From an uncultured Candidatus Saccharibacteria bacterium (GTDB lineage Bacteria > Patescibacteriota > Minisyncoccia > Phycocordibacterales > UBA5272), in contig CAZEIK010000003.1 in NCBI GenBank assembly GCA_964512315.1, positions 22,548-86,547 of the forward strand: 64,000 nt of DNA, read 5' to 3'. Of the stretch, positions 5,257 through 63,007 are shown in pieces. Below the pieces are notes generated by a model. It was not told where the DNA came from. It did not search any database and saw only the letters and a list, made by a program, of their open reading frames with translations. Each line of letters opens with the position of its first letter. Position 1 is the first letter of the stretch. Both the position numbers and the translations under genes were made by a program.

Positions 5257-5688
5257 ATGTCATTTGTTTTTGACCCTAGGATTAACCCCACTGCACCACT
5301 GGACCCAAATGACCCAGCACCAACTCACTGGGTCGATATCGAAACCTCAGACTATCGTGCCGCTCTGTTTGGTTTCGCTAGTGAAACCTTCGAAGGGTGT
5401 TCCAGGTGGGAGGTGCGTGAGTTGCGCCGTTGGCGTGCACTAAACCCTAAAACGCTCGAAGGCTTCACTACTAACACACTCTGGGAATCGATACCTGGAA
5501 TGGGTGGTAGCCTGAATAATCTAGAGTTGGTTGATGTCCAACAAGAACCTTTCTATGATGAAGACGGTGCATCTTTGCGCCTGATGCTGTATTTCGTGAC
5601 AAGCGAGTACGGTAAGCTGATCAAGATTCCTGCATTTGGCTTCAGGACGAAGTATCGCGAAAAAGAAAAACCGGATATTGTGTCTTAG
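5257..5688 (+). CDS. Orphan 143-aa protein in the same foreign cassette.
   Basis: Ribosome-binding site AAGGAG-N7-ATG, about 50% GC. Its stop overlaps the sufB stop in convergent orientation. Confidence 0.5.
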   Translation: MSFVFDPRINPTAPLDPNDPAPTHWVDIETSDYRAALFGFASETFEGCSRWEVRELRRWRALNPKTLEGFTTNTLWESIPGMGGSLNNLELVDVQQEPFYDEDGASLRLMLYFVTSEYGKLIKIPAFGFRTKYREKEKPDIVS

Positions 5689-7007
5689 CTCATCTCTAGC
5701 TCGACGAGTCTATTGAACTCGACGGCGTATTCTAGGGGAAGTGCACGGATGATGTCTCCGACGAATCCGCCCACTATGATGCGATAAGCGTTATCCTTGC
5801 TGAATCCGTGCCCCATGAGGTAGTGCAGCTCCTCATCACCTATCTTGCCGACAGTCGCCTCATGTGTGACGTCGGCATTTTTATTTTGTATTTTATTCAT
5901 CGGCCAAGTATTAGATACTGACTTATTATCAAGAATTAGTGCGTCACAACCAACAAATGACTTGGTATTCTCGGCTGACTTACCAACTTGAACAAAGCCG
6001 CGATAATTAGACACCCCACCATCCTTGGACACACTTTTGCTTCTTATTATTGATCTCGTATTTTTACCCAGATGTATTACTTTACTTCCTGTATCTTGAT
6101 CTTGATTCTCTCCTGCGAATACTATACCCATAGACTCACTACGACTGTAGTCGCCAAGTAGTACTGATGTTGGATATAACATAGTCACAGCAGACCCCAT
6201 GTTACCGTTCACCCAATTGATCTCACCATTTTTATAGACCAAAGCCTTCTTGGTGTTGAGGTTATAAGTGTTCTTGCTCCAATTCTCAACGCTGATGTAT
6301 TTTGCTTTTGCATTTTCCATTACTATAACTTCAACGCATCCAGCGTGTAGGCTACTAGCTGTGTATTTTGGTGCACTGCAACCTTCTATGTATTCAACAG
6401 TTGCGCCATTTTCTACAATTATCAAAGTGTGTTCAAATTGTCCTGCACTAGGAGCATTCATGCGAAAGTAGGCTTGTAACGGCATTGTAACTTTTACACC
6501 CTCTGGAACATATATAAAAGTCCCACCACTCCATACAGCGCCATGCAATGCTGTAAAAGTGTGATCCTTGGCTGGCACACAGTCAGTCATGAAATATTTC
6601 TTAACCAGGTCAGGATACTTTTGTACAGCCACATCCATGTTCTCAAATATAACTCCTTGCTTAGCTAATGTGTCTTTGATTCTGTGATATACAACACCTG
6701 AGTCATACTGCGCACCTACACCACCCAGGTACTCCCTTTCAGCTTTTGGTATACCAAGCTTTTCAAATGTATCAGTTATCTCTTGGGGCAGCTCTGCCCA
6801 ACTTTTCTTTTCGTCTACAGACGGGTCAATGTAATAGTTAATTTTGTCTAATTCTAATTTAGATAGATCCGGCCCCCAAGTGGGAATTTTGGAAGACTCA
6901 AAAATAGCAAGAGCCTCTAATCTCTTTTGTAGCATCCACTCAGGCTCATTTTTTGAAGTGCTGATTTTCCTTACTAGCTCCTCAGTGATAATTCCTTTTA
7001 AAGGCAT
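5685..7007 (-). CDS. sufB: Fe-S cluster assembly protein SufB.
   Basis: 440 aa with high similarity to SufB along its full length. The 3' about 200 nt are unusually GC-rich (about 55%). Confidence 0.9.
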   Translation of the reverse strand: MPLKGIITEELVRKISTSKNEPEWMLQKRLEALAIFESSKIPTWGPDLSKLELDKINYYIDPSVDEKKSWAELPQEITDTFEKLGIPKAEREYLGGVGAQYDSGVVYHRIKDTLAKQGVIFENMDVAVQKYPDLVKKYFMTDCVPAKDHTFTALHGAVWSGGTFIYVPEGVKVTMPLQAYFRMNAPSAGQFEHTLIIVENGATVEYIEGCSAPKYTASSLHAGCVEVIVMENAKAKYISVENWSKNTYNLNTKKALVYKNGEINWVNGNMGSAVTMLYPTSVLLGDYSRSESMGIVFAGENQDQDTGSKVIHLGKNTRSIIRSKSVSKDGGVSNYRGFVQVGKSAENTKSFVGCDALILDNKSVSNTWPMNKIQNKNADVTHEATVGKIGDEELHYLMGHGFSKDNAYRIIVGGFVGDIIRALPLEYAVEFNRLVELEMS

Positions 7008-51718: not shown

Positions 51719-52588
51719 TTAGTAACCGTACCAACCTGTATATCTACAAGTTCCAGGTCTTGTTCCATCATAAGCAAATGTCTGATAGTACTGAGCTGTG
51801 TAACCTGTTGGACATGTACAGCGAGAAAGGTCTACCTGAACTCCATCACCAACCGCACAAACATTATTCCAAGTATTGTTATAGTTGTTATTATAGTTAC
51901 AATTACCATAATAATAACAAGTATCATAATAATTATTATTGTAGTTATTATTATAATTACCGTTACTTTGGCACATAAAAGTACCAATGCCATAAGACGT
52001 AACAACGTATCCAGATGGACAAGAACATGTATTTGTACTGTAAATAGTATTTAGATTACAAATAGAAGAGTTGTTCCAGTTGTTATTGTTATTATAGTAA
52101 CCATTAATTTGGCAAGAGAATGCACCACTTCCAGAAACTGGATAATATGCATAATATCCAGATGGACATATACAAGTATTAGAAAGATAAGTTGTATTCA
52201 GTGCACAAGTTGTATTGCTGTTATTGTTGTTATAGTTAACAGGAGTGTTACATGACTTTGCGCGTAACGCTTCACGAGTCATTGTTCCTACATATCCAGT
52301 AGCTGACAAGTTGTTAGCTGATTGAAAATTCTTCACAGCCTGAACTGTAGCATTACCAAAGAATCCAGTAGGATCCTGATACATATATCCCATTTGACCC
52401 AAAAGCTCTTGAAGCTTTGATACTTCTGAGCCAGTATTGCTGTCTCTGTCACCTTTTCTCATATTATAAGAAAAAGTTGTACAAGTGATTGTGTTATTTG
52501 AATTTGAATCAAAATCACCAGAAACTTGTGCCGAAATAGGCAAAATAGTTATAAAAAATAAGGAAATAATGGTTGCTAGCTTTTTCAT
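51719..52588 (-). CDS. Secreted protein: peptidoglycan-binding (PG_binding_1-like) domain followed by Asn/Tyr-rich Cys-motif repeats.
   Basis: Signal peptide. PGB motif (VxxLQxxLxxxGY...DGxFGxxTxxAVxxFQ). Three C-x-LNT-x-Y-x-x-NTC-x-CPSGY repeats separated by poly-N/Y. Confidence 0.6.
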   Translation of the reverse strand: MKKLATIISLFFITILPISAQVSGDFDSNSNNTITCTTFSYNMRKGDRDSNTGSEVSKLQELLGQMGYMYQDPTGFFGNATVQAVKNFQSANNLSATGYVGTMTREALRAKSCNTPVNYNNNNSNTTCALNTTYLSNTCICPSGYYAYYPVSGSGAFSCQINGYYNNNNNWNNSSICNLNTIYSTNTCSCPSGYVVTSYGIGTFMCQSNGNYNNNYNNNYYDTCYYYGNCNYNNNYNNTWNNVCAVGDGVQVDLSRCTCPTGYTAQYYQTFAYDGTRPGTCRYTGWYGY

Positions 52589-56621: not shown

Positions 56622-57098
56622 ATGGTAAAGAGAAATAGGAAACAAAAATCTCTCAAACAAAAACTCGAGCGCACTGCCCTATCCGCTACACATTGGATAG
56701 GCTCTATCGAGTCACTGATAATACATACTGCAGTATTTGTGTCTGCCTTTGCTCTCGTATTGTTCGGTGTGTCATTCGACCGTGTGTTGCTAGCACTCAC
56801 CACTGTACTCTCACTTGAAGCCATATACCTAGCCATTTTTATTCAAATGTCAGTAAATCAGAACACTATACAACTAGCTCAAGTTGAGAAGGATGTGGAG
56901 GAAATTCAGGAAGATATAGATGAGATACAAGAGGATGTGGAGGAAATTGCAGAGGATGTAGACGAGATCCAGGCTGACGTTGAACATATTGAGAAAGACA
57001 TCGATGAGATTCAGGAGGACGTACAAGAAATAGAAAAAGATGTCGACGAAATACAAGAAGACGTAGAGGACCTAACCGAAGAGGAGAAGAATGTTTAG
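56622..57098 (+). CDS. DUF1003-like membrane protein with an acidic heptad-repeat tail.
   Basis: 2 TM helices plus an MSVNQN motif, then 9 x DV(E/D)EIQE heptads. Confidence 0.5.
   Translation: MVKRNRKQKSLKQKLERTALSATHWIGSIESLIIHTAVFVSAFALVLFGVSFDRVLLALTTVLSLEAIYLAIFIQMSVNQNTIQLAQVEKDVEEIQEDIDEIQEDVEEIAEDVDEIQADVEHIEKDIDEIQEDVQEIEKDVDEIQEDVEDLTEEEKNV
56892..57080 (+). repeat. 21-nt tandem repeat x9, in frame and coding for DVxEIQE heptads.
   Basis: Seen directly in the sequence. Confidence 0.8.
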
Positions 57099-57144
57099 AG
57101 TTTAAATAAATATTTTGTCTTTATAATTATGATAGACTATATTT

Positions 57145-58074
57145 ATGTTCAACAAACTTTTAGATAAATTAAGTAACGAAAAAACTCTATTTATAAATCT
57201 ATTTACAATTAATTTTGTTATATCTGTTTTGATTTTTTGTTTCTTTTTATTTTCTTATATGTTTGCTTCTGAAACCATACTAAAAGGTCTTAGTATTGGT
57301 AATTCAATTAGTATTTGGGACAGGTTTTTAGCGATACCTCTTATATCTGAAACAATAATAGGGACAATTTCCACTGTATTACATTTTGGTTTTAGTGCAT
57401 CAACTGTCAATTTAATATTAGTAGTGATTTGTTTTGTTTTTATAGTTTCCAGAAGCTTAATAATGACACTTTTTAATATTTTTGTATTCAAAGCAACAAA
57501 AAGCAAAAAGGTTCTACTTGCCGTGCTCCTAATTCCATACTTAATACAAATTACAAGTATGGCTTTTATATACAGAACACCGGAATATAAAAATTTTACA
57601 AATAAAGATTACAATGAAAAAGAAACAGCCAAACTAAATATAGAATATTCAGAAAATTATTCTAATAATAAATTTGAAAAATATATTAACTCTAATGGTT
57701 GTGACGAAGAGTATAATGACCCAAACAATACGTGGAGAGTTAATATCGACGAATGTGAAAGGCGTTCGATAAAAGAATACCTTGCCCAAAAGTATTATGT
57801 TAATAGTTTAAATCAACAAGAAACTGAGGAAAGTATTTTTAGTAAGTTTTTTGATAAATGTACTCAAATAGAAAATACAGTTAAACAAAATAAGTGTTTT
57901 GATGGATTCTTTTTATGGAAAAAGTACAACGACAAGGAATATTACCAATACTTACCGAACGAAAATAGTTCAGAATTCATTAAAAACCTACTAGAATCAA
58001 AAGAAAGTTACTGCTCTTTTGCTTACAAAAATGTAAAAGAAAAGGTTAATGCTTGTATAAAAAGACTACCTTAA
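57145..58074 (+). CDS. Hypothetical membrane protein with a Cys-containing C-terminal domain. Very AT-rich (about 25% GC).
   Basis: 309 aa ORF, 4-5 TM helices. Confidence 0.45.
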   Translation: MFNKLLDKLSNEKTLFINLFTINFVISVLIFCFFLFSYMFASETILKGLSIGNSISIWDRFLAIPLISETIIGTISTVLHFGFSASTVNLILVVICFVFIVSRSLIMTLFNIFVFKATKSKKVLLAVLLIPYLIQITSMAFIYRTPEYKNFTNKDYNEKETAKLNIEYSENYSNNKFEKYINSNGCDEEYNDPNNTWRVNIDECERRSIKEYLAQKYYVNSLNQQETEESIFSKFFDKCTQIENTVKQNKCFDGFFLWKKYNDKEYYQYLPNENSSEFIKNLLESKESYCSFAYKNVKEKVNACIKRLP

Positions 58075-58079
58075 CTCCA

Positions 58080-58122
58080 CTACACCTTAAACTCAATAAC
58101 GTCACCGTCTTTTATTATACAC
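58080..58122 (-). repeat. Imperfect copy of the ychF 3' end (encodes IIKDGDVIEFKV*). Direct repeat of 58597-58640 flanking the GNAT gene.
   Basis: About 30/33 identical nt, then a looser match. Confidence 0.75.
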
Positions 58123-58140
58123 ATGTCAACACAATTGTAT

Positions 58141-58593
58141 TTACAACTTTTTCAAATCTAAAATGTGTGTAGCTTTGTATTCATTAGACTTTTTAAATCC
58201 CATAGACTCGTAAGCAAGTGCTGCGATTGGATTAGATGTAAACAAACGTAGAGTAGTAAAATTCTTTCTAGCTTCCTGAATAATCATATTCACTAAGAGT
58301 TTTGCTAAACCTTGTCTGCGATATTTTTGTGAGACATATATATGACGCACTCTACCTATATTTTTATCGTCCACATATTGATCTATGTTTAGGCCTCCTA
58401 TTGCAACACATTCACCTAAAACAAATATTCCCCAAAACTTTTCACCTTGTTTTGAAAAATCATTAACCCCACTTACCCATTCATCAATAGTTTTTCTAAC
58501 TGAATAATAACCTTCTGCTGTAGCCTCAAGGTCTAATTTATCTAACGAAGAAATATTTTCATCTGTGATCTGAATAGCTTTATAGTCAGTCAT
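58141..58593 (-). CDS. GNAT-family N-acetyltransferase.
   Basis: Acetyl-CoA binding motif RRQGLAKLLV. Confidence 0.8.
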   Translation of the reverse strand: MTDYKAIQITDENISSLDKLDLEATAEGYYSVRKTIDEWVSGVNDFSKQGEKFWGIFVLGECVAIGGLNIDQYVDDKNIGRVRHIYVSQKYRRQGLAKLLVNMIIQEARKNFTTLRLFTSNPIAALAYESMGFKKSNEYKATHILDLKKL

Positions 58594-58597
58594 AAAT

Positions 58598-59695
58598 TTA
58601 CACCTTAAACTCGATTACGTCGCCGTCTTTTACAATATACTCTTTGCCTTCGGTGCGAAGTAGACCTTTGGATTTACAATTTGCAAATGACCCTTCACGT
58701 AGGAGGTCATCACAATGTACAACCTCGGCACGTATGAATTTGTCTTTGAAGTCGGTGTGTATTGCTTGGCCTGCAACTGGTGCTGTACTGCCTGCTTTAA
58801 TGGTCCATCCACGAGTCTCCTCAACTCCAGTTGTGAAGTATGTCTCTAGGCCAAGAGTCTTATAAGCTGCCTTGATTAGTGTCTGTATACCGTCATCCTT
58901 ACCTCCCAGCTCGCTACGCATCATACTCTTCTCCTCGCCTTCAAAATCTTTCAAGTCATCTTCTATCTTGGCGTCGATAGTACAATATTCAAAATTATTT
59001 TTATTCAAAAAGTCTATCAATGCTACAAATCTTGGGTCATTGCTTTCATCTAGATTATTACCTCCCGCCTTTTTATTAAGACCGTATAAGAACTTCTTAG
59101 CAGTTATAAGATTGAGCTGCTTGATTTGTTTCAACTCTTCTTCTGTATAACTCTCTTGCGAGACGAGTTTGCCACCTTCTAGTGTTCCGATTAATTTATC
59201 CAATAGTGCGTCGAGTGCTACGAACTCCTTATCGCCTTTTTTAACATCTTTTTGTATATTAGACTTTCTATTCTTACAAGTCTCTAGGTCGGCTTGAGAT
59301 AATTCAAAATTAATAACTTCAATGTCGAACAGTGGGTCAACTTTGTTATTAACATGCAGCACCTTGTCATCTTCAAATATTCTAACTATTTCAAGTATCG
59401 CGTCAGTCTCGCGTATATGAGAGAGGAATTTGTTACCAAGACCTTCACCTTCACTTGCCCCCTTCACAAGTCCTGCGATGTCTACGAACTCTATGACTGC
59501 TGGTATTGTGCGCTTGGTTTGTGATAATGTTGCTAACTTCCACAGTCTCTCATCAGGCACCTCAACAATACCGACAGATGGGTCGATAGTACAGAATGGA
59601 TAATTCTCAGCTGGTACCGAGTTCTTAGTGAGTGCGTTAAAGAGTGTACTCTTGCCAACATTCGGCAGCCCCACAATTCCAATAGATAGTGACAT
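58598..59695 (-). CDS. ychF: Ribosome-binding ATPase YchF (Obg family).
   Basis: GLPNVGKST, TGS domain. 365 aa. Confidence 0.95.
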   Translation of the reverse strand: MSLSIGIVGLPNVGKSTLFNALTKNSVPAENYPFCTIDPSVGIVEVPDERLWKLATLSQTKRTIPAVIEFVDIAGLVKGASEGEGLGNKFLSHIRETDAILEIVRIFEDDKVLHVNNKVDPLFDIEVINFELSQADLETCKNRKSNIQKDVKKGDKEFVALDALLDKLIGTLEGGKLVSQESYTEEELKQIKQLNLITAKKFLYGLNKKAGGNNLDESNDPRFVALIDFLNKNNFEYCTIDAKIEDDLKDFEGEEKSMMRSELGGKDDGIQTLIKAAYKTLGLETYFTTGVEETRGWTIKAGSTAPVAGQAIHTDFKDKFIRAEVVHCDDLLREGSFANCKSKGLLRTEGKEYIVKDGDVIEFKV

Positions 59696-59714
59696 AGTTA
59701 GAATATACTAACAT

Positions 59715-59750
59715 AAAACAAGACCAGCCCGAAGAGCTGGTCTTGTTTTA
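59715..59750 (-). terminator. Intrinsic terminator.
   Basis: aaaacaagaccagc-ccgaa-gagctggtcttgtttt. Confidence 0.7.
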
Positions 59751-59761
59751 TGTATTTAAGA

Positions 59762-62097: not shown

Positions 62098-62233
62098 ATT
62101 TAGATTGTAGCATTAAAAATTGCTAATATAACTAGTTTAAATATTTGACACCTATAAAAGTAAGTTGTATAGTGATATTTAAATTTTGAGTTCGCTCAAA
62201 ACAGATCTTTCAACCACCCGAGGAGATACGTTA

Positions 62234-62956
62234 ATGTCACAAGTATTTCAAGCTACGAGTCCGACGCACAACACCAACCCAAAAGACCTGCTAAATGCAG
62301 AGATCGGGGAAACTTTCAAGATTGCCTTAAGGAAAAAAGAAGGTAATCGCAACTATTCGGGTTACATCATGCTCGAAGTCATACTCGTGGACGGTAGTCC
62401 TGCCGTAAAGGTTACCGACTCCACTTTCGAGCCAATTCAACTTCAAGACTACCATCGGCTACATTTATGGATAAGCCACCTGAAATTTAAAAAGTTCCAT
62501 CACGCAAGAGGCCAAAAAGGTCAGCTACTCTCTGAACTTTTCAATGCCCTACTTTGGGCCACATCGAGCGACTACATACCTCCACAAACTCCCAAAAACA
62601 GGGAACCACATCTCAGGCTCGTGGTTCCTCAACCGAGACCAGCTGCTATACAGCTGGGAGAAGAGAAGGTTGTACCAATTACTGAAGACTTCGTCTTTGG
62701 GAAACTCAAGCCCAATCAATTCATCCTTGGTAGTGGCAAAGTCGCAGGCCGCAACTACGTTCTCTTGCGGAAGCATAATGATGGCTACGGGGTCATGATG
62801 ACACTCGTCAGAACAGACATCGAATGTCTTGCCGGACTTATCAACACAAAAGACGGCGAGGTCAGCATGTCCGACATACGCAACAACAAAGGCCAATTTG
62901 GTGGCTGGCTTTATGACATGCTCCCGCTTATTGGCAAATTCAAATGGAGAACATAA
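62234..62956 (+). CDS. Orphan about 240-aa protein in a compositionally foreign cassette.
   Basis: Ribosome-binding site GAGGAG before the internal ATG 62234. About 50% GC. Strong terminator. Abuts the tRNA-Leu 3' end. Confidence 0.5.
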   Translation: MSQVFQATSPTHNTNPKDLLNAEIGETFKIALRKKEGNRNYSGYIMLEVILVDGSPAVKVTDSTFEPIQLQDYHRLHLWISHLKFKKFHHARGQKGQLLSELFNALLWATSSDYIPPQTPKNREPHLRLVVPQPRPAAIQLGEEKVVPITEDFVFGKLKPNQFILGSGKVAGRNYVLLRKHNDGYGVMMTLVRTDIECLAGLINTKDGEVSMSDIRNNKGQFGGWLYDMLPLIGKFKWRT

Positions 62957-62975
62957 GGAAAGGAGGATCCCAAAC

Positions 62976-63007
62976 CAAAAAGCCGCTCTCGCGGCTTTTT
63001 TTATTTT
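62976..63007 (+). terminator. Intrinsic terminator.
   Basis: aaaaagccgc-tctc-gcggcttttttt. Confidence 0.8.

Follow-up and report, generated by a model that had tools for sequence, protein, structure and literature searches.

A displaced copy of the ychF gene end beside an acetyltransferase gene: a likely recombination scar in a strain-variable islet of an uncultured Patescibacteria lineage

In a 64,000-nucleotide (nt) stretch of DNA from an uncultured Candidatus Saccharibacteria bacterium (contig CAZEIK010000003.1, positions 22,548–86,547; the whole stretch is called the window, and coordinates without a contig name refer to it), a gene encoding a GNAT N-acetyltransferase is located directly behind ychF, the gene of a ribosome-binding ATPase, and is followed by a second copy of the ychF 3′ end. 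The arrangement is a real recombination scar at a strain-variable hotspot, most likely left by ordinary homology-driven recombination and not by a new kind of mobile element. The direction of the event is uncertain: either the GNAT gene was inserted, or a module carrying the neighbouring open reading frame (ORF) ORF309 was imported together with a ychF stub.

The duplicated 3′ end of ychF

Alignment revealed a pair of direct repeats, 58081–58122 and 58599–58640, with a start-to-start spacing of 518 nt. The two copies are identical at 36 of 42 nt (86%), and identity rises to 91% across a 32-nt core. A preliminary description of this DNA had reported the repeat at about 90% identity, a slightly generous figure for a pair that is itself real; it extends far beyond the 15 nt that had been named as the limit for a meaningless similarity.

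The 32-nt core of the ychF end (AAAGACGGCGACGTAATCGAGTTTAAGGTGTA) has just two sites in the window at three or fewer mismatches, and none of 100 dinucleotide-preserving shuffles contained a match. The local alignment score of the two copies is 30, compared to a shuffled maximum of 12–14. These shuffles rule out chance or low complexity as the source of the repeat, and the sequence is not low-complexity. The same arrangement was found in 10 independently assembled contigs from different samples, which are 100% identical over 901 nt; an eleventh contig carries two mismatches, both outside the repeat. ERZ4216102, ERZ4208449, SRR28480390 and SRR36343562 are among the samples that contain the species. 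The occurrence of an identical structure in 11 independent contigs indicates that it is not an assembly artefact, and a chimera was thereby ruled out. Further duplications of gene ends, for which the preliminary description had proposed a genome-wide search, are absent from the rest of the 64-kb window.

The components of the locus are as follows.

58598..59695, minus strand: ychF, encoding a ribosome-binding ATPase of 365 amino acids (aa) (Pfam MMR_HSR1 and YchF-GTPase_C); stop codon TAA at 58600–58598
58599..58640, minus strand: proximal repeat copy, the functional ychF 3′ end (from the alignment)
58599..58612, minus strand: proximal instance of the 14-nt core GAGTTTAAGGTGTA, the putative crossover zone (from the comparison with contig L194)
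58141..58593, minus strand: GNAT N-acetyltransferase gene, 150 aa (Pfam Acetyltransf_1/7/10)
58123..58140, minus strand: 18-nt junction joining the GNAT stop to the relic
58080..58122, minus strand: distal copy, the displaced ychF 3′-end relic; stop codon TAG at 58082–58080, core instance at 58081–58094
57145..58074, plus strand: ORF309, AT-rich, convergent with ychF and GNAT; no Pfam or NCBIfam family
57099..58597, no strand: strain-variable islet between the ychF and DUF948 stop codons (from the break of homology with L194)
56622–57098, plus strand: DUF948 gene, conserved, convergent with ychF

The distal copy can be read in frame on the minus strand (ATG TGT ATA ATA AAA GAC GGT GAC GTT ATT GAG TTT AAG GTG TAG). 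Its translation is MCIIKDGDVIEFKV followed by a stop, and that of the ychF end is EYIVKDGDVIEFKV, likewise followed by a stop. Both ends encode the same conserved peptide, KDGDVIEFKV, and the protein end of ychF is unaltered. Within a 33-nt core, all four differences, including TAA/TAG, fall at third codon positions (P of about 0.012 for random placement). The 14-nt core is identical in both copies, whereas divergence is much higher over the leftmost 12 nt of the relic (5 of 12 differ). The earlier statement that the copy still encodes the ychF-end peptide and a stop was confirmed in these respects (reading frame, TAG stop, synonymous core differences), as was the presence of a 453-bp GNAT gene between the repeats (ORF 58141–58593, minus strand).

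The GNAT gene starts 4 nt past the ychF stop, with no spacer able to hold a promoter of its own, and the last ychF codons contain a Shine-Dalgarno-like motif, AAGGTG (58606–58601), which precedes the GNAT ATG by 7 nt. The GC content of GNAT is 32.5% (22.5% at third codon positions), compared to 41% for ychF, 38% for the window and 26% for ORF309; the “native composition” previously ascribed to the gene is inaccurate. Between orf93 and ychF (59711–59753) there is an inverted repeat of 18 nt without mismatches, its arms separated by a 7-nt loop, with a T-rich stretch after it on the minus strand; Rfam gave sub-threshold matches only. It is probably the terminator of the upstream unit, in which case ychF and GNAT would form a short transcription unit of their own.

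Empty sites and the variable islet in relatives

The informative close relatives were obtained by protein search and contig look-ups only; a YchF search of genome and metagenome contigs gave nothing closer than 66–68% identity. The nearest YchF relatives are Patescibacteria, found among metagenome-assembled genomes of the Paceibacteria/Parcubacteria type.

Among 5.8 billion proteins, the sole non-conspecific homologue of ORF309 is ORF294 (P0012; 49% aa identity). In contigs L180 and L188 this gene is convergent to an intact ychF, without GNAT, and the two stop codons are 6 nt apart; the stop codons of the relic and ORF309 are separated by 5 nt. The nucleotide alignment runs unbroken from the relic into the 3′ end of ORF309, parallel to the passage from the L188 ychF end into ORF294. 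Since the relic holds the position of the real ychF 3′ end in L188 and L180, the distal copy is a displaced ychF end.

The closest relative lacking GNAT is represented by L193 and L194 (YchF 98.6% identical in aa sequence; 93.3% nt identity over 3.5 kb). The ychF genes of the window and of these contigs are 93–94% identical at the nt level, with divergence uniform up to the stop codon. Homology between L194 and the window ends at the ychF stop (58599) and restarts at the DUF948 stop (57097). Over a span of 47 nt (the last 45 nt of ychF and 2 nt past the stop), the mismatches of L194 are confined to positions 1, 2, 5, 9, 10, 27 and 30 for the distal copy and to positions 21, 45, 46 and 47 for the proximal copy. 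Before the third stop-codon base, 43 of 44 positions agree between the proximal copy and the ychF end of L194, and apart from one synonymous site all differences between the two lie at or beyond position 45. The stop region reads TAG+TG in the relic and in L194, and TAA+AT in the proximal copy. On the left, up to the 14-nt core GAGTTTAAGGTGTA, the L194 ychF end follows the proximal copy; on the right, including TAG and the following TG, it follows the distal copy. As judged from these alignments, an empty target would be expected to relate in this way to the two junctions of an inserted segment.

The core of the relic differs from L194 at just 2 of 33 nt, which suggests that the event was recent and that the donor was probably a close lineage. 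Its age would be of the order of the split between the window and L194, far below the 20–25% nt divergence between lineages. The empty sites in L188/L180 and L194 support the preliminary reading of the locus, in which DNA was inserted at the ychF 3′ end and the gene end was restored. The ychF loci of relatives, a check also proposed there, include empty sites without GNAT (L188/L180 and L194); in four distant lineages ychF is followed by GNAT without any repeat.

About ten related GNAT clusters were found. In five of the seven contexts (the window, L096, L098, L131 and L195) the gene lies directly behind ychF, with gaps of 1–20 nt; in the remaining two it is located behind ychF-FTHFS (L092) and behind map (L093). 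Each GNAT-bearing lineage has closer relatives without GNAT. Pairwise GNAT identities (54–77%) roughly follow the YchF identities (61–89%), and the closest homologue in the searched collection shows 76% aa identity. The idea that GNAT is a recent foreign cassette unique to this genome was ruled out by its homologues behind ychF (L096, L098, L131, L195) and ychF-FTHFS (L092). No second copy of the upstream gene's end was detected in the GNAT-bearing lineages, map-GNAT in L093 included, and no second ychF-end copy or recurring core was found at other modules in 14 relatives, on both strands. Since ychF-GNAT occurs in four distant lineages without the repeat, the inserted DNA looks like a piece of a relative's ychF-GNAT operon, unlike a mobile cassette complete in itself.

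With respect to function, the GNAT protein scores 28.5 bits against the RimI equivalog TIGR01575, far under the cut-off of 86.4. Its best sequence match in the PDB is a diamine acetyltransferase (E = 5e-9), and only sub-threshold RimI-like matches were obtained. In L131 a member of this subfamily is fused to a Sua5/YciO/YrdC (TsaC-like) domain (L131:2547 onward), and in L098 the gene lies two genes from Sua5 (L098:5001–6884). It is placed directly past the methionine aminopeptidase gene in L093 (4230–5456) and directly past ychF in L195 (2894–4456). Such sequence features hint at a translation-linked, perhaps RimI-like, acetyltransferase, although it is far below the RimI cut-offs.

The interval between the ychF stop and the DUF948/EamA/atp genes was found to have at least seven different contents among relatives with 88–99% YchF identity.

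Window: GNAT, the relic and ORF309
L194: ORFs of 121 aa and 170 aa
L092: FTHFS, GNAT and ORF77
L189–192: nothing (3 nt)
L185/186: nothing (11-nt overlap)
L187: ORF of 184 aa
L188: ORF294
L181–184: ORFs of 84 aa and 145 aa

Three of these arrangements (L185, L187 and L188) stand behind an identical YchF protein. The boundaries of the islet are at or within a few nt of stop codons, and in the close relatives every module at the site begins between −11 and +6 nt from the ychF stop. In L181–L184 (ychF at L181:4674–5771) the ychF gene is a mosaic: nt 1 to about 330, together with the upstream dsbA and orf93, are window-like (91–98% nt identity), whereas the remainder of the gene and the module behind it resemble the D lineage. 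These mosaics show that the module behind ychF is exchanged by crossing-over within the gene. One sample, ERZ4216102, holds contigs of both the window lineage and the D lineage.

The module at this site in L194 (3503–4663) has a GC content of 43.5% and contains two ORFs, one of 121 aa that is membrane-like and one of 170 aa, together with a strong terminator hairpin (GGCCGCGCGTAGCGCGGCC); its proteins have no homologues in the window or at the other loci. The preliminary description had tied the GNAT insertion to GC-rich cassettes elsewhere in the window. A GC-richer module does occur at the same site in L194, but the link is only an indirect one. One of those cassettes may be a segment of about 0.9 kb with 46% GC, located between the photolyase gene and tRNA-Leu (62117–62998), which contains a 256-aa orphan ORF (62186–62956, plus strand) without a Pfam family. 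The segment is absent from the 93%-identical L193, where about 170 nt are found instead, and the nearby region 63263–63367 matches L193 in inverted orientation.

How the scar may have arisen

The explanation preferred here, tentatively and at a probability rated slightly below even, is that a fragment of a related strain, comprising a ychF end and GNAT, was inserted by homology and left a one-off scar, with the distal 42–45 nt as the old ychF end. The ancestor would have had ychF tail-to-tail with ORF309, in the order still seen in L188 and L180. A segment of about 518 bp, copied from the ychF-GNAT operon of the related strain, would then have recombined into the conserved last ychF codons; it would have consisted of (i) the last 30–45 nt of the donor ychF, (ii) the 4-nt spacer, (iii) GNAT and (iv) about 16–18 nt beyond. 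The crossover would have taken place inside the identical 14-nt core, and the simplest route would be a single homologous (Campbell-type) crossover of a circularised fragment, which duplicates the homologous stretch on either side of the insert. The predicted product retains the ychF protein end with a new stop codon (TAA), has GNAT presumably co-transcribed with ychF and served by the ribosome-binding site AAGGTG in the last ychF codons, and leaves the old end (TAG) behind, 518 nt further downstream and 5 nt away from the ORF309 stop. The corresponding GNAT-less junction would read, from the ychF body to the right part of the relic, ...GTAATC, then GAGTTTAAGGTGTAG, then TGGAGTTAAGG. The event would be one of many gene-content swaps in the islet, for which the conserved flanking genes would serve as recombination anchors. 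The sequences themselves show the repeat, its collinearity with an authentic ychF end, the variable content of the islet and a crossover within ychF in relatives; the circular intermediate, RecA dependence, donor and direction of the event are inferred.

Several known systems leave comparable traces. Campbell-type integration and the related process of homology-facilitated illegitimate recombination (HFIR) place direct repeats of the homologous stretch on both sides of the insert and require no element-encoded enzyme. In E. coli, the homologous segment became duplicated when circular molecules integrated by a single crossover, an outcome that far outnumbered true HFIR (PMC3240628). The locus described here shows the corresponding scar: the duplicate shares homology with the anchor gene, and joining the left of one copy to the right of the other reproduces the empty site. 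It differs in that the homology is only about 33–45 nt and that neither donor nor circular intermediate was observed; moreover, classical HFIR usually gives a deletion, and here there is a duplication. The displacement of C-terminal ends in Rhs, contact-dependent inhibition (CDI) and type VI secretion system (T6SS) loci is similar in that a new end and a downstream gene arrive together and the old end is kept downstream as an orphan, as found here; such displaced 3′ ends have been attributed to a conserved anchor plus an illegitimate end (PMC5361080). However, ychF lacks a polymorphic end (the two copies code for one and the same peptide), there is a single stub and no array, and the partner gene is GNAT in place of the toxic C-terminal domain and immunity gene of those loci. 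Replacement flexible genomic islets likewise have different gene sets between the same two conserved genes, stop-codon boundaries and recombinant flanks, and their replacement by recombination in the conserved flanks is established (PMC4033161). The present islet differs in being very small (0–2.2 kb) and in showing one imprecise swap with a visible scar. Genes for competence (comEC/pilus) and for homologous recombination have been reported from Patescibacteria (PMC12455944), and the GNAT homologues located 1–20 nt behind ychF in L096, L098, L131 and L195 show that donors with a ychF-GNAT order exist.

Several observations weigh against an insertion of GNAT. Neither a donor sequence nor a GNAT-less allele of the same species was found, and 11 of 11 conspecific contigs carry the full structure. 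The length of the duplicated homology is uncertain (33–45 nt), given the diverged left 12 nt of the relic, and for RecA-type recombination this is a short homology. Only 3 nt shared with L194 (TAG TG) and the collinearity with ORF309 assign the relic's right part to the recipient. The nt identity between GNAT and its L092 homologue (75%) equals the genome-wide divergence from that lineage, which fits a long-resident gene. No foreign tract was found at the 3′ end of the window ychF: its divergence from L194 is uniform to the end, and it shows about 78% identity to lineages B, C and D along its whole length.

An event of the opposite polarity, unlikely but a serious contender, would make ychF-GNAT the ancestral order. 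A linear fragment of a related strain, with the last 35–45 nt or so of its ychF, ORF309, DUF948 and beyond, would have been imported by HFIR, with a homologous anchor in DUF948/EamA/atp on the right and an illegitimate join 16–18 nt downstream of GNAT on the left; the relic would be the ragged end of the donor fragment, and GNAT would never have been mobile here. This would suit the identity of GNAT to its lineage B homologue in L092, which lies within the range of core genes between these lineages (74–79%), the recurrence of GNAT as a ychF neighbour in four distant lineages, as for a resident gene, and a proximal ychF end whose closeness to L194 equals that of the remaining gene. It would also suit the composition of ORF309, the most deviant gene here, and the sharply decayed left edge of the relic, as for an arbitrary fragment end. 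HFIR has been described in bacteria with natural competence and invoked to explain displaced 3′ ends (PMC5361080), but true HFIR is reported to be rare (PMC3240628, PMC5361080). The stop region (TAG+TG shared by the relic and L194, TAA+AT in the proximal copy) is easier to explain if the relic is the native end. Furthermore, ORF309 and ORF294 share 71% nt identity, near the genome-wide level relative to lineage D (76–81%), and ORF309 is in this respect no more foreign-looking than GNAT. A local rearrangement, in which the 518-bp unit of ychF end and GNAT was tandemly duplicated by slippage or unequal crossing-over and the second GNAT was then deleted, requires no foreign DNA and would account for the greater similarity of the two copies to one another and to L194 than to lineages further away. 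It is nevertheless improbable, since it needs a second deletion exactly at the relic stop, restoring the L188/L180-like spacing of 5–6 nt to ORF309, and leaves the difference between TAG+TG in the relic (as in L194) and the proximal TAA unexplained.

The site-specific cassette considered in the preliminary description is, on the evidence gathered, a shade more doubtful again. The ychF 3′ end would act as an attachment site at which a recombinase encoded elsewhere inserts promoterless cassettes, the repeats being attL and attR; in a broader and equally doubtful form, the ychF (possibly also map) ends of Paceibacteria would be true att sites where GNAT, FTHFS, orphan membrane proteins and GC-rich modules are inserted and excised, an integron-like capture without attC. 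Direct repeats derived from the 3′ end of the target gene do flank a single promoterless gene, the target gene is regenerated and the empty-site relation is attB-like; the uniform starting point of the modules relative to the ychF stop, and the patchy GNAT subfamily, always tight behind a housekeeping gene and with closer GNAT-less relatives in each lineage, would also fit. In integrative elements targeting the 3′ ends of tRNA or protein genes, the gene similarly remains intact and the empty site equals the left of attL plus the right of attR. Here, however, the repeats are 86% identical and not perfect, and no integrase or excisionase is present in or near the 518-bp insert. Its sole product is the 150-aa GNAT, with no tyrosine or serine recombinase. 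No integrase or transposase family appears in the precomputed Pfam matches of about 12 neighbouring genes (about 6 kb either side, where an IntI/attI platform was likewise not found), and the orphan ORFs scanned match no recombinase family. Integron cassettes are alike in being single promoterless ORFs expressed from upstream signals at a site of strain-variable content; they differ in their structured attC repeats and recurring recombination sites, neither of which was detected here. No inverted repeat was reported around the relic, and the surrounding 111-nt region folds no better than its shuffles on either strand (z of −0.88 and −0.84), with no Rfam match. A transposon or insertion sequence is not indicated either: there is no transposase ORF, no terminal inverted repeats occur at 58123–58140 or 58594–58597, and the duplication (42 nt, imperfect) contrasts with target-site duplications of 2–14 bp. 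Together with the ychF-GNAT pairs lacking a repeat in four lineages, the single occurrence of a gene-end duplication in 64 kb and the missing second ychF end or shared core at other modules, these results do not support a dedicated system, and homologous replacement alone explains a variable islet between convergent conserved genes. Least credible of all is that the distal copy is retained for a function, as a 14-codon mini-ORF, as a terminator or regulatory RNA acting where the transcripts of GNAT and ORF309 converge, or as a repeat for GNAT excision. The relic does start with ATG and keeps its frame and stop with synonymous core differences, and direct repeats could in principle permit precise loss of GNAT, giving an L188-like state. 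Nevertheless, no Shine-Dalgarno sequence is visible upstream of the mini-ORF, the relic contains no terminator-like site, its fold is unremarkable (z about −0.9 on both strands), it is absent from all other lineages, and all conspecific contigs keep GNAT. The synonymous pattern is explained equally well by changes that arose while both ends were functional ychF alleles.

Neighbouring features and biological meaning

The genes around the locus were assigned by Pfam to photolyase, DsbA, YchF, GNAT, DUF948, EamA and ATP synthase subunits. The 18-nt junction (58123–58140) shows no similarity to the sequence past GNAT in L092. Within the DUF948-like gene, a unit of 21 nt (7 aa) of the type D-[VI]-[DE]-E-I-Q-E is repeated eight times in tandem (56890–57078). 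Borderline inverted matches, seen in D-lineage loci, between ychF ends and this heptad-repeat region (score 15–16; EYIVKDGDVIE versus EHIEKDIDEIQ) were judged to be due to chance or composition. Upstream of the atp operon (51878–52238) there are imperfect direct repeats, an 84-nt pair (70% identity, 147-nt spacing) and 28-nt AT-rich units, which suggest a repetitive, low-complexity coding or intergenic segment. A “tRNA-Pyl” (anticodon CTA) predicted by ARAGORN at 6823–6900 is probably spurious; it lies within a 440-aa ORF (5685–7007, minus strand), and Rfam found no family, tRNA included, at the gathering score.

Both the homologous replacement of flexible islets and the displacement of gene ends are known, and current views of them stand; the present case is a small and clean example. 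If a ychF-end att site were nevertheless real, it would mean gene capture without attC in bacteria with tiny genomes. The recurrent ychF-GNAT pair may point to a translation-linked acetyltransferase. The interval from ychF to atp is a strain-level hotspot, with its seven or more contents at about 88–99% YchF identity, and the locus provides an example, at base-pair resolution, of gene-content turnover in an uncultured, small-genome Patescibacteria lineage, in which the conserved end of a housekeeping gene would have served as a landing pad and an imprecise event left a datable scar.

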